DNA of 64,000 bases from Escherichia coli (lineage in GTDB: Bacteria; Pseudomonadota; Gammaproteobacteria; Enterobacterales; Enterobacteriaceae): assembly GCF_050920415.1 (NCBI RefSeq), contig NZ_CP169309.1; one strand, 5' to 3'. Positions 18,484 through 53,795 of this stretch are shown here, in pieces. Below the pieces are notes generated by a model, which saw nothing but the letters and a program-made list of their open reading frames with translations, did not search any database and was not told the origin of the DNA. The translations under genes and the position numbers were made by a program. The number at the start of each line of letters is the position of its first letter. Within the stretch, counting starts at the first letter, position 1.

Positions 18484-18559
<76 letters not shown>

Positions 18560-18612
18560 GTTTAAAAGACATCGGCTTCAGCGGATGTCCGGCTGAAAGG
18601 CCTGAAGAATTT

Positions 18613-18686
18613 GGCGCGTTAACAAAGCGGTTATGTAGCGGATTGCAAATCCGTCTAGTCCGGTTCGACTCCGGAACGCGCCTCCA
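18613..18686 (+). tRNA. cysT: tRNA-Cys (GCA)
   Basis: 74 nt GGCGCGTTAACAAAG...CGCCTCCA, anticodon GCA. Confidence 0.95.
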
Positions 18687-18698
18687 CTTTCTTCCCGA

Positions 18699-18785
18699 GC
18701 CCGGATGGTGGAATCGGTAGACACAAGGGATTTAAAATCCCTCGGCGTTCGCGCTGTGCGGGTTCAAGTCCCGCTCCGGGTACCA
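18699..18785 (+). tRNA. leuZ: tRNA-Leu (TAA)
   Basis: 87 nt GCCCGGATGGTGGAATCGG...GGGTACCA, anticodon TAA; 3' two thirds lie in the prophage att repeat. Confidence 0.95.
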
Positions 18786-18855
18786 TGGGAAAGATAAGAA
18801 TAAAATCAAAGCAATAAGCAGTGTCGTGAAACCACCTTCGGGTGGTTTTTTTGTA
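18731..18855. repeat. attL: 125-bp direct repeat (3' 55 nt of tRNA-Leu plus the tRNA-operon terminator)
   Basis: Identical to 53671..53795. Confidence 0.9.
18829..18853 (+). terminator. glyW-cysT-leuZ operon terminator
   Basis: Hairpin ACCACC-TTCG-GGTGGT followed by TTTTTTT; duplicated at 53769..53793 inside attR. Confidence 0.7.
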
Positions 18856-50607: not shown

Positions 50608-50811
50608 TTAGCTGTTAGCCAAAGCGTCTTTTAACATCGCCACAAGGTTTACTTCAGGCTTTTCCATTTTGGCGCGTTTGGGGCGGATAATAATTCGACC
50701 GTCAGCCAACATCTTTTTGCATGTATTAAGAGGGATACCTGTTATCTCTGCATATTTCTGCAGGGATACATAGGGGGCATTCACATTGATATTGATGGTT
50801 ATACCTGACAT
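50608..50811 (-). CDS. Small HTH DNA-binding protein (excisionase/CII-like candidate)
   Basis: 67 aa; VSLQKYAEITGIPLNTCKKML resembles an HTH; second gene of the early operon. Confidence 0.55.
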   Translation of the reverse strand: MSGITININVNAPYVSLQKYAEITGIPLNTCKKMLADGRIIIRPKRAKMEKPEVNLVAMLKDALANS

Positions 50812-50827
50812 CCCACTAGCCTCCTGA

Positions 50828-51034
50828 TCAGGAAGATTTGTTTTGTTCTTTCTGGGTTAGCTCTAGGCCGCGAAGGAAGATCATGCGCGCCATGTTAGAG
50901 GATGAGCGTTGTTCTTTAGCTGCCATTTCATCAATGACGGCTCGCTCCTCGAGGGACAGCCGAAGTGCCAGTCTTGGACCTGTGGCGGTGTTACGCGGAA
51001 TGCGTGATCTGGTATCGTGAAGAACTTGTTTCAT
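50828..51034 (-). CDS. Cro/Cox-position ribbon-helix-helix repressor
   Basis: 68 aa; LRLSLEERAVIDEMA is RHH-like; first gene of the early operon, divergent from cI. Confidence 0.6.
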   Translation of the reverse strand: MKQVLHDTRSRIPRNTATGPRLALRLSLEERAVIDEMAAKEQRSSSNMARMIFLRGLELTQKEQNKSS

Positions 51035-51094
51035 AGTGGTATATTGTGATCATCTAATAGCTCGTGAAATCATTTTGGTATCAAAAAAGATACC
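51009..51094. promoter_or_regulatory. Genetic-switch region with GGTATC operator half-sites
   Basis: GGTAT at 51011, 51038 and palindrome GGTATC-AAAAAA-GATACC at 51077..51094; AT-rich divergent promoter region. Confidence 0.4.
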
Positions 51095-51109: not shown

Positions 51110-51514
51110 ATGAAAAATGATATTGGTCAGCGGTTGCGTGAGGAAAGGGAAAGATTGGGACTTAGTCAAGTTGCCATGAGCGACATTGGTGGAGTCAAAA
51201 AGCTAACTCAGCTTAGATATGAGAAAGGAGATAGCTTTCCTGATGCTGCGTATTTGGCAGCGCTGTCTCGTTTTGGCCTTGATGTTCAGTATGTTGTGTT
51301 GGGAATTCACTCACCTGAAACTTATAACGATGATGAGCAGGAGTTGATTACTCGCTTTCGAGCAGCTTCGTTAGATGTGAAAAACGCGGTGATTGGGGCT
51401 TTAAAAGGTGCGATCAGTGAAAAGGAAACTCAGCCATCAGGACGTGAGTTAAATATTTCTGGTGGTAATAACCGTATTGCTGGTCGTGACTATAACGAAA
51501 CTAAGGGTAGGTGA
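51110..51514 (+). CDS. Immunity repressor CI (XRE-family HTH)
   Basis: 134 aa; LREERERLGLSQVAMSDIGGVKKLTQLRYEKGDSFP is a typical XRE HTH; transcribed toward int. Confidence 0.8.
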   Translation: MKNDIGQRLREERERLGLSQVAMSDIGGVKKLTQLRYEKGDSFPDAAYLAALSRFGLDVQYVVLGIHSPETYNDDEQELITRFRAASLDVKNAVIGALKGAISEKETQPSGRELNISGGNNRIAGRDYNETKGR

Positions 51515-51529
51515 TAGTAGGGAGGTGAC

Positions 51530-52180
51530 ATGGCCGTCAACTCAAACGGTTCAAACAATCGCGTTGCTGGGCGTGATTTTCACGAAAAGAATATTCAGAT
51601 AGAGCGATATGATGGTTCTCATACCGTCAATATCGCAATCCCTTCGAATAATGATGATGACGATCGCCCTTTGCTTAAGGCTCAGCGTAAGGAGCTAAAT
51701 AGTTTGGTTGCTGCTATTGCAGAAGCTAGCAATACTGAAGCGTTTATTATTTGGCAAAAAGTACATGCTGAGATTGGTGTAGCTGGTATTGATGATATGA
51801 CAGTAAATCAATATAAAACAGCGGAGAGTTTTCTGCATGCAATGCTTGAGCGATGTAAAGATCATGATGCCTGTAAGGCTCTTGTAAGTTTATTACTACG
51901 TAACAGTGAAGACTGTGGACTTCGACAAAAACTTCTGCGGTATTGCCATATCAATTTCGGTACAGGACGTTTAAACGATCTTACTCGTTCTCAGTTACAG
52001 TCTGCATTGTCGTGGTTAGAGCAACAATCGGCATCAAGCCACACAGAGAGTTCGACCTTACCAGAAGTCCGACTTCGTGCTTCAGAATTAATCCGACTTT
52101 ATCCAAAAGAAATAATATTCTTTATCTGCGTAGGGGGTTTGGTAGGCGGTGTCATTTCTAGGGTGCTTTTTAATTTGTAA
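51530..52180 (+). CDS. Tail-anchored membrane protein of unknown function (immunity-region moron)
   Basis: 216 aa with good RBS (GGAGG) and a single C-terminal TM helix; N-terminus repeats a motif from the CI C-terminus. Confidence 0.55.
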   Translation: MAVNSNGSNNRVAGRDFHEKNIQIERYDGSHTVNIAIPSNNDDDDRPLLKAQRKELNSLVAAIAEASNTEAFIIWQKVHAEIGVAGIDDMTVNQYKTAESFLHAMLERCKDHDACKALVSLLLRNSEDCGLRQKLLRYCHINFGTGRLNDLTRSQLQSALSWLEQQSASSHTESSTLPEVRLRASELIRLYPKEIIFFICVGGLVGGVISRVLFNL

Positions 52181-52209: not shown

Positions 52210-52557
52210 ATGAAAGTAAAAAAGGTTCAACTATTAGTTACTTTTTTATCTATGTTTTCTTTTTCCGCCGTCGCAATGCCTTTTAAAACTATTGAACGTG
52301 AGAGTTTCAATGGGGTATGGCCATTTAATACTGATGAGGTTCAATTACAGTGTCTTGATGGTAATCCTTATGTGATGAATTTTGACGATAATAAGTTATA
52401 TGCACTTACAGGTTTGGCTCGAATAAAAGGTAAAACATTTGGTGCGTTACCGTTAGATAACAATAATCCATTTTGGCTAGATAATGATGCCGCCCCAGGG
52501 TTAAAAAAGAGTCTGGGGGATGTCACTAAGGCTGCATTTGATTTATGTGATAAGTAA
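52210..52557 (+). CDS. Secreted protein of unknown function (immunity-region moron)
   Basis: 115 aa with signal peptide MKVKKVQLLVTFLSMFSFSAVA; low-GC gene. Confidence 0.55.
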   Translation: MKVKKVQLLVTFLSMFSFSAVAMPFKTIERESFNGVWPFNTDEVQLQCLDGNPYVMNFDDNKLYALTGLARIKGKTFGALPLDNNNPFWLDNDAAPGLKKSLGDVTKAAFDLCDK

Positions 52558-52562
52558 CTAAA

Positions 52563-53564
52563 ATGTCGGTTCGTAAGATTCCATCAGGTAAATGGCTTTG
52601 CGAATGTTATCCCTACGGGGCATCGGGAAAACGCATTCGTAAACAGTTTGCGACAAAAAGTGAGGCGCTCTCTTATGAGCGCCGTTTAATGAATAGTAGA
52701 GTTGGAGACGAGTTTCAAGATGGTTCTGGTCCTCGTCTTTCTGAGTTGATTGCTCGTTGGTTTGAGATGTACGGTAAAACCTTGTCCTCTGGTGCAGAGC
52801 GCAAAGTCAAACTTGAGGCGATTTGTTCCAGGCTGGGAGATCCATTTGCTTCTCAGTTTGACAAAAATATGTTTGCTACTTATCGGGAAAGAAGGCTATC
52901 AGGAGAATGGAATCCCAAGGGGAAGAAAAAACTTAGTGAAGCAACCGTTAATCGCGAGCAGTCATATCTACATGCTGTTTTTGCCGAACTGAAGCGCCTT
53001 GGGGAGTGGTCTGGTGAAAACCCCCTGACTGGTATTCGCAAGTTTCGTGAGGAAGAAAAGGAACTGGCGTTTCTGTATGTAGATGAGATTGAACGCCTTC
53101 TGATTGCGTGTGATGAGTCACGGAATAAAGATTTGGGGGTTGTTGTCCGTATTGGGCTTGCGACTGGTGCTCGGTGGAGTGAAGCAGAAGGATTAAAGCA
53201 ATCTCAAGTACTGCCCGGTCGAATCACATTTGTTAAAACTAAAGGAAAGAAGAACCGCACTGTACCGATTTCACCTCAATTGCAGGCTATGCTTCCTAAA
53301 AAACGAGGAGCGCTATTTTCACCATGTTATGAGGCTTTTGACGCTGCAATTAAGAGAGCGAAGATCGAGCTTCCTGATGGGCAATTAACTCATGTGCTAC
53401 GTCACACGTTTGCCAGTCATTTTATGATGCGGGGCGGAAATATTCTTGTGTTGCAAAAAATACTGGGGCATAGCGATATAAAAATGACTATGCGTTATGC
53501 GCATTTTGCTCCAGGTCATTTAGAGGCTGCTGTTGAATTGAACCCTTTTGACAATAGAGGGTAA
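52563..53564 (+). CDS. int: Tyrosine integrase (P2 Int-like)
   Basis: 333 aa with catalytic box HVLRHTFASHFMMRGGNILVLQKILGHSDIKMTMRYAHF; adjacent to attR. Confidence 0.9.
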   Translation: MSVRKIPSGKWLCECYPYGASGKRIRKQFATKSEALSYERRLMNSRVGDEFQDGSGPRLSELIARWFEMYGKTLSSGAERKVKLEAICSRLGDPFASQFDKNMFATYRERRLSGEWNPKGKKKLSEATVNREQSYLHAVFAELKRLGEWSGENPLTGIRKFREEEKELAFLYVDEIERLLIACDESRNKDLGVVVRIGLATGARWSEAEGLKQSQVLPGRITFVKTKGKKNRTVPISPQLQAMLPKKRGALFSPCYEAFDAAIKRAKIELPDGQLTHVLRHTFASHFMMRGGNILVLQKILGHSDIKMTMRYAHFAPGHLEAAVELNPFDNRG

Positions 53565-53670: not shown

Positions 53671-53795
53671 TTTAAAATCCCTCGGCGTTCGCGCTGTGCG
53701 GGTTCAAGTCCCGCTCCGGGTACCATGGGAAAGATAAGAATAAAATCAAAGCAATAAGCAGTGTCGTGAAACCACCTTCGGGTGGTTTTTTTGTA
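53671..53795. repeat. attR: 125-bp direct repeat (partial tRNA-Leu 3' end plus terminator)
   Basis: Identical to 18731..18855. Confidence 0.9.

Follow-up and report, generated by a model that had tools for sequence, protein, structure and literature searches.

In amyloid signaling motif (ASM) pairs, a motif of 15–25 residues is found at the C-terminal end of one protein and at the N-terminal end of the adjacent gene product. Such motifs show an excess of Q, N, G, V, and I and a deficit of K, P, and L, and are recognized operationally by a pairwise match of at least 15 amino acids (aa) with a score of at least 40 (Dyrka et al., 10.1101/2020.01.06.895854). An ASM pair studied experimentally, Bab/Agp (BASS11), is located in an Escherichia coli prophage (10.1101/2024.11.07.622273). 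In phage lambda, the switch is shifted by RexA, a CI-binding protein whose gene is co-transcribed with cI, and RexA's effect is modulated by RexB (10.1101/2021.04.19.439022). Flk has been shown experimentally to be a tail-anchored inner-membrane protein (PMC6794478). In this study, we analyzed a gene pair in a 64-kb stretch of an E. coli chromosome (contig NZ_CP169309.1; the whole stretch is called the window below), in which a prophage immunity repressor carries at its C-terminus a peptide that is matched at the N-terminus of its neighbor, a tail-anchored protein with an Flk_N domain, here called the partner. In P2-like and Mu-like prophages, the genes for the repressor and the Flk_N partner make up a conserved two-gene module.

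The matched peptides and their carriers

The features of the pair are as follows (AF2, AlphaFold2; HTH, helix-turn-helix).

51110–51514 (+): prophage immunity repressor ('CI'), 134 aa, XRE-type HTH
51449–51499 (+): repressor tail motif, residues 114–130, LNISGGNNRIAGRDYNE
51512–51529 (+): gene junction, with the stops TGA TAG TAG at 51512–51520, the Shine–Dalgarno sequence GGGAGGTG at 51520–51527, and the ATG following at 51530
51530–52180 (+): tail-anchored Flk_N-domain protein, 216 aa, the partner of the repressor (phrog_5825, E = 2e-102)
51536–51586 (+): partner head motif, residues 3–19, VNSNGSNNRVAGRDFHE
51650–52042 (+): Flk_N helical core of the partner, residues ~41–171 (AF2)
52103–52174 (+): C-terminal hydrophobic tail anchor of the partner, residues ~192–215 (AF2 helix)

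Residues 114–130 of the repressor match residues 3–19 of the partner. When the two proteins were compared by BLASTP, this was the one significant segment, with 10 of 17 residues identical and 15 of 17 positive (E = 2e-5, for a single comparison). Its local BLOSUM62 score was 62 over 17 aa, and the scores of the remaining pairs discussed below ranged from 34 to 62. A six-frame scan of the window found the patterns [AS]G[RK]D[FYILV].E and N[RK].[AS]G.D only at the two motif sites. The match is more than a chance resemblance, because the motif is conserved in the homologues of both proteins. An earlier note on this DNA had described the shared motif, and direct reading bore out all of its coordinates and sequences, as well as the three consecutive in-frame stops and the Shine–Dalgarno sequence that it had placed between the genes. 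The DNA identity of about 70% that it gave was also correct, since the core at 51461–51499 agrees with 51548–51586 at 28 of 39 positions (72%), the second copy being in the same frame and offset by 87 nt.

The partner gene starts 15 nt past the repressor gene on the same strand, with the Shine–Dalgarno sequence ending 2 nt ahead of its ATG, and a search of the junction found no promoter-like or terminator-like site. The two genes are probably on one transcript. The partner thus differs from antirepressors under separate control (e.g., by LexA).

The repressor consists of an XRE-type HTH (residues 1–65), two helices (residues 74–106), a flexible linker, the tail motif, and a basic end, and its C-terminus reads ...LNISGGNNRIAGRDYNETKGR. 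It matches HTH_31 and the PHROG repressor families, its closest fold match is P22 C2, and PADLOC returned weak HTH matches alone. As the gene is also divergent from Arc-like and Cox-like genes and lies near int in a P2-like prophage, the name 'cI' used in the earlier note is reasonable. Like the repressors of phage repressor/antirepressor systems, this HTH protein is encoded at a lysis–lysogeny switch, divergent from early lytic genes. It lacks the C-terminal peptidase S24 domain of the LexA-like, self-cleaving CI proteins: the 134-aa sequence gives HTH matches only, and AF2 places a disordered tail after the two helices. In 42 repressor comparisons in which the HTH part was less than 35% identical, the final 58 residues averaged 62% identity. 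The repressor is therefore modular, with an HTH part that is freely exchanged and a C-terminal part that is kept.

The N-terminus of the partner reads MAVNSNGSNNRVAGRDFHEKN, and the head motif is followed by a second beta-prone unit that extends to residue 38 (IQIERYDGSHTVNIAIPS, to nt 51643). For structure prediction, the repressor, a 30-residue linker, and the partner were fused and submitted to AF2 with a paired 30-row alignment. The partner core was predicted with a predicted local distance difference test score (pLDDT) above 95 (fusion residues 205–335) and a terminal helix at fusion residues 356–379 with a pLDDT of 88–94, while the first 40 residues of the partner were disordered. Both motif regions are thus predicted to be flexible in the monomer context, as expected of a binding peptide. 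A hydrophobic C-terminal end is kept across the partner family.

The assignment of the partner to the Flk_N family rests on several searches. The partner has the layout of this family, an Flk_N domain followed by a C-terminal tail anchor. Flk_N (PF27202) is precomputed on near-identical homologues; it was not reported for the window partner itself by the installed Pfam-A scan. The NCBIfam model for Flk (NF007987) gave a partial match to residues 37–166 (E = 8e-16), with 58 bits against an equivalog cut-off of 353, so that the protein is no Flk equivalog. A search of PDB sequences with the partner family profile returned nothing below E = 0.3. By analogy with Flk, most of the partner would lie on the cytoplasmic side of the membrane, its N-terminal motif included, and thus on the side of the repressor. 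Residues 49–108 of the partner are also matched by phrog_245, 'anti-repressor Ant' (E = 0.004). Three weak relatives of the Flk_N core (P0349, P0376, and P0378) have N-termini that, judging by eye, we take to resemble phage antirepressor-type proteins. The Flk_N fold may be common to the C-terminal domains of phage antirepressors.

Conservation, co-variation, and origin of the motif

The earlier note had named absence of the motif from homologues as a refutation; the opposite was found, since both families keep it. In the head motif, S5, G7, N10, R11, D16, and E19 were invariant among 31 diverse partner homologues and N4, G14, and R15 were at least 90% conserved, and 120 partner homologues among the matches listed had the same N-terminal pattern. 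The tail consensus in repressor homologues was (I/V)N(V/I)SGxGNR(V/I)AGRD(Y/F)(N/H)E, followed by NKK, and repressors with the tail motif came from Klebsiella, Salmonella, Yersinia, Serratia, Erwinia, Pectobacterium, Dickeya, and Hafnia. Ninety close-relative loci (10 genomes of different species and 80 viral contigs) provided 55 distinct pairs. In all 55, save two degenerate or duplicated loci, the tail-motif repressor lay immediately upstream of the head-motif partner, with a gap of 2–18 nt (usually 9–15 nt) and a variable third gene. At a locus of the degenerating symbiont Candidatus Symbiopectobacterium (L008, 3605–4631), the tail motif was mutated (AGNNFHE) and the partner frameshifted. 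A locus of Candidatus Arsenophonus (L010, 3069–3966) had two repressor copies, one of them truncated, and both retained the tail motif.

Searching 1.84 billion cluster representatives with the partner family yielded 140 relatives. About 26 of these were true Flk (MQP..., ~330 aa) without the head motif, and at least 68 bore the head motif, either NRxAGRD-like or as strand-prone variants such as FHGxVGQVAAGDIxNF or VNGDVGNVVSGDVTIHNY. Variant tails similar to these heads were present on distant repressor homologues as well. The module was found both in P2-like prophages and in transposase-carrying Mu-like prophages.

In distant relatives, whose loci were fetched genomically from both the repressor and the partner side, the motif differed in both proteins together, and each tail variant was matched by the head of its own neighbor, as in the following loci.

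L095: tail QTFHGSVGQSVAGSITNKSGVTFNV; head QDFHGEVGQAAGGDINNYGVNISFV
L092 and five more: tail QQFNGPVGTVTTGDVVN; head QQFHGAVEQVAAGDIKN
L096: tail HGDVLGNVIKGNVTMG; head NGEVGNVVSGDVTIHN
L094: tail GEGQIAGGNIY; head TAEQIAGRDIY
L093: tail VSGQVSAENIYNF; head VDQVAANNIYNIY
L099: tail APIGDIFGRDLV; head GPVGDVAGRDII
L091: tail FHGDINGQFAGNKIVN; head FNGTAQGQFSSRDIIN

A further matched variant combined the tail PIGDIFGRDLV with the head PVGDVAGRDII. Co-variation was tested by summing the local alignment scores of cognate tail–head pairs and comparing the sum with that obtained after shuffling the partners. For 11 pairs the cognate sum was 539, against 329 ± 43 for shuffled partners (p ≤ 1e-5). 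The non-NR class alone gave a cognate sum of 322 against 242 ± 25, a value reached by 7 of 5040 permutations, and 32 non-redundant pairs gave 1633 against 1022 ± 76 (z = 8), which none of 200,000 shuffles reached. Independent divergence from an old duplication would leave cognate peptides no more alike than others, and the cognate excess therefore indicates concerted change. In a Mu-like prophage of Gilliamella (L093, 2912–3367), the matching head is carried by a 151-aa protein with multiple hydrophobic segments and without an Flk_N or PHROG match; the motif can thus be attached to another membrane protein.

The earlier note had offered a local duplication as one origin of the motif. Taken as a recent DNA event, this left no trace at the codon level: in 16 diverse pairs, 75 of the 165 identical tail–head residues used the same codon, where the codon usage of the same genes predicts 73.0, and in the window pair the figures were 4 of 10 and 4.3. 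Since codon identity equals the expectation from codon usage, the similarity is held at the protein level, and the DNA identity of 72% is what the shared residues alone yield. Recent duplication or gene conversion was rejected on this basis; an ancient duplication may still lie at the origin of the motif. Concerted change together with the lack of a DNA-level signal points to selection for matching.

A putative contact between repressor and partner, and its alternatives

That the two copies form a shared interaction motif, as the earlier note had also proposed, is supported indirectly but strongly by the conservation of the motif in both families and the co-variation of its variants within gene pairs. 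The explanation that we consider best, and hold with moderate confidence, is that the repressor tail makes a co-evolving homotypic contact with the Flk_N protein, which would be expressed together with the repressor, tethered to the membrane, and able to modulate repressor activity. Also in its favor are the strict gene adjacency, the lack of a DNA-level signal, the modularity of the repressor, the predicted flexibility of both motif regions, and the precedent of lambda RexA. From the sequence patterns we infer that the repressor and the partner bind physically and that the two peptides pair as strands. The repressor would expose at its C-terminal end a short, flexible, strand-prone peptide and the partner a matching one at its N-terminal end, and the likeliest mechanism would be that the two pair or stack as inter-chain beta strands. 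The partner would tether part of the repressor pool to the inner membrane and serve as a built-in modulator of repressor activity, probably as an antagonist or a sensor, by competition with, or capture of, the element that mediates association among repressor dimers.

An amyloid-like (prion-type) signaling switch for prophage induction is a doubtful, though conceivable, form that such a system could take. The tail-anchored Flk_N protein would then be a sensor that oligomerizes on a membrane-associated signal; its N-terminal motif would take a stacked beta fold and template the identical motif on the repressor tail, and the repressor would be drawn off the DNA into a self-propagating polymer, leading to lytic growth or another all-or-none response.

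Several observations weigh against a homotypic beta contact that modulates the repressor. The AF2 model of the 1:1 fusion left both motifs below a pLDDT of 50, as unpaired coil. When three tails and three heads were modeled alternately, strands appeared over every motif segment, but at a pLDDT of ~29, which is no evidence. These AF2 results fit a flexible peptide that would fold only upon binding or multimerization. Between motif classes the co-variation was clear, but within a class it was loose (the cognate partner had a median rank of 4.5 of 32), groups B and C combined nearly the same head with tails that differed, though of the same pattern, and inspection by eye of the NRxAGRD class revealed no evident position-by-position co-variation. 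The beta motif is also not universal. In four loci (L100 at 1607–2758, L135, L139, and L140) the C-terminal end of the repressor is helical (...GKILKLVVNR) and the partners have an extra N-terminal helix (M..DEKLxKI..RL, or more broadly M..DE(K/R)L.K...) followed by a strand-like segment (VKGxGNxxNFGTQ). The rule that the repressor's C-terminal end goes with the partner's N-terminal end still seems to hold in this class, and the helices, which resemble each other weakly, may represent the same coupling in helical form. Finally, the direction of regulation is a guess.

Electrostatic complementarity between the basic end of the repressor and an acidic linker in the partner was considered and dropped, as the repressor end was net positive in 21 of 25 pairs and the linker acidic in just 6 of 25.

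It is unlikely, in our view, that both motifs dock one common third factor (a protease, an adaptor, or a host protein) rather than each other. In being short, flexible, and terminal, the motifs recall degrons or short linear motifs, and the repressor of phage Mu is controlled by ClpXP via its C-terminal tail; moreover, 'NIY' is common to the two Gilliamella variants and could mean a host-specific reader. Yet at least six motif variants exist among related hosts, so that the third factor would need to co-vary too, and no third conserved gene stands beside the pair, the next gene being variable. Host proteases are conserved across these hosts, and in the six-frame scan the prophage yielded no motif copy beyond the two. 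We give somewhat less credence to the idea that each motif serves the self-association of its own protein, with the likeness coming from common origin and occasional old gene conversion and with no hetero-contact. Small XRE repressors do need an oligomerization element, and the composition of the motif is typical of strand-stacking peptides. Independent self-association would not explain, however, why a tail and its cognate head have remained more similar than non-cognate ones, none of the 16 pairs showed conversion at the codon level, and a peptide that associates homotypically would be expected to bind its near-identical neighbor too.

The two remaining alternatives are much less probable. 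The earlier note had suggested a once-fused module, and the pair might be the remnant of a split or fused gene or serve a fusion product made by read-through or frameshifting; in the window the genes are indeed in the same frame, with the motif copies 29 codons apart. This is very improbable, as three consecutive stops block read-through, the frame relation of the two genes is inconsistent among loci (gaps of -4, 1, 2, 3, 9, 11, 15, 17, and 31 nt and others), and neither an HTH domain in a partner homologue nor a fused CI–membrane protein was found among 120 listed of 194 matches and the 140 representatives from the 1.84 billion proteins; fused ancestors and read-through were accordingly rejected. 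Least credible of all, and hardly to be entertained, is that the resemblance arose by chance from low complexity, or that it is a functionless, neutral recent duplication. Its shortness and its richness in G and N would fit this view, but the motif is conserved across genera and phage types in each of the two families, it co-varies within pairs, its synonymous sites have diverged as far as chance allows, and in the degenerating symbiont the mutated tail motif is accompanied by a frameshifted partner.

Prophage context and comparison with known systems

The gene pair belongs to a P2-like prophage of ~35 kb within the chromosomal sequence of the window. The P2-like assignment is based on a 940-aa gpA-type replication nickase (phrog_91, E = 2e-273) together with the Cox-like and Arc-like genes. 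On the + strand, the order is repressor, 216-aa gene, DUF2511 gene, integrase. The neighboring features are as follows.

50608–51034 (-): divergent early genes, Arc-like at 50828–51034 and Cox-like at 50608–50811 (phrog_3431 and phrog_575)
52210–52557 (+): variable cargo gene, here encoding a DUF2511 protein with a signal peptide, 115 aa (RefSeq annotation)
52563–53564 (+): tyrosine integrase, the final gene on the repressor strand (phrog_1, E = 1e-76)

tRNA genes for Gly, Cys, and Leu lie at 18484–18785. A perfect 125-bp direct repeat occurs at 18731–18855, where it spans the 3' part of the tRNA-Leu gene (leuZ) and downstream terminator-like sequence, and at 53671–53795, just beyond the integrase gene and ahead of yecA and tyrP. 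The two copies are probably attL and attR of the ~35-kb prophage. The 75-bp spacer between the repressor and Arc-like genes contains a perfect inverted repeat, GGTATC-N6-GATACC (51077–51094), and an additional TGGTAT (51037–51042), which are candidate operator sites for the repressor. The 2.9-kb region was found in 608 of 5426 complete E. coli genomes, 480 of which were at least 99% identical.

The DUF2511 cargo gene is outside the conserved repressor–partner pair, and PADLOC gave no match for either the partner or the DUF2511 protein. The slot between partner and integrase varies, with different genes in L003, L006, L052, L061, L089, L092, and others. The alternatives to DUF2511 include a BRCT-like 288-aa protein (weak PADLOC match to PDC-S48), a 298-aa protein, an acidic 85-aa protein, and a 244-aa membrane protein. 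Locus L092 encodes a TIR-TM defence protein (E = 4e-103) one gene further downstream of the partner, and the flanks are lysis genes instead of an integrase. The cargo slot looks like a moron or defence hotspot.

How lysogeny is exited in P2-like and Mu-like prophages whose small XRE repressors have no S24 domain is poorly understood, and the module is common, being also present in Klebsiella, Salmonella, Yersinia, Serratia, Erwinia, Pectobacterium, Gilliamella, and metagenomic phages. If our explanation is true, the lysis–lysogeny decision would have a new kind of input, namely a repressor coupled to its membrane-anchored partner by matched terminal peptides that co-evolve. If the contact were stacked-beta or amyloid-like, amyloid signaling would be extended from cell-death effectors to transcription control. 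The natural variant classes of the motif are ready-made specificity controls for swaps.

With Flk, the regulator of flagellar biosynthesis in Salmonella and E. coli, the partner shares the helical Flk_N domain and the C-terminal tail anchor. True Flk differs in being chromosomal and longer (~330 aa), with the domain repeated, and in starting with MQP... without the head motif.

The likeness to ASM pairs such as fungal HET-S/NWD2, bacterial BASS Bell/NLR, and Bab/Agp is closer at the level of the motif. The same motif is placed at the C-terminus of one protein and the N-terminus of the adjacent product, the gene for the C-terminal carrier is upstream, motifs are more alike within than between pairs, and pseudo-repeats occur on one side. 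The window pair has a match of 17 aa and a score of 62, above both thresholds of Dyrka et al., although our aligner was not their 'matcher' and the scores are only roughly comparable. The motifs, of 17–25 residues here, contain 16.6% G, 12.3% N, 11.7% V, 7.9% Q, and 7.5% I and just 2.5% K, 1.5% L, and 0.9% P, a composition of the ASM type. The polarity is that of Bab/Agp and HET-S/NWD2, with the C-terminal motif on the 'effector' and the N-terminal motif on the 'sensor', but the output here is a transcription factor and not a pore former. The carriers themselves are different, an XRE HTH repressor on the C-terminal side and Flk_N with a tail anchor on the N-terminal side, in place of the Bell/HeLo pore-forming effector and the NLR/STAND/TPR sensor of ASM pairs, and the NRxAGRD variant has a conserved R–D pair. 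Because an NLR-like sensor and a Bell/HeLo effector are absent and amyloid formation is a candidate property only, we did not file the module as an ASM member. The ASM papers that we searched make no mention of HTH proteins or repressors, and searches of the literature for the motif strings, Flk_N, and membrane antirepressors found no description of the repressor–partner motif.

The lambda cI-rexA-rexB region resembles the module in that a gene expressed in the lysogen beside the repressor gene yields a repressor-binding protein, binding being what we infer here. It differs in having no sequence or domain relation to the module and no terminal motif common to CI and RexA. RexB is a membrane protein; in the module, unlike in lambda, one protein combines the membrane anchor with the putative repressor contact. 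In SinI/SinR of Bacillus subtilis, the antagonist encoded next to the repressor shares the repressor's own multimerization segment. The Sin element is a helix pair and not a strand-prone peptide rich in G and N, and SinI is small, soluble, separately controlled, and not phage-borne. As analogies, lambda RexA and SinI/SinR are nevertheless more conservative for the repressor–partner module than the amyloid signaling pairs are.

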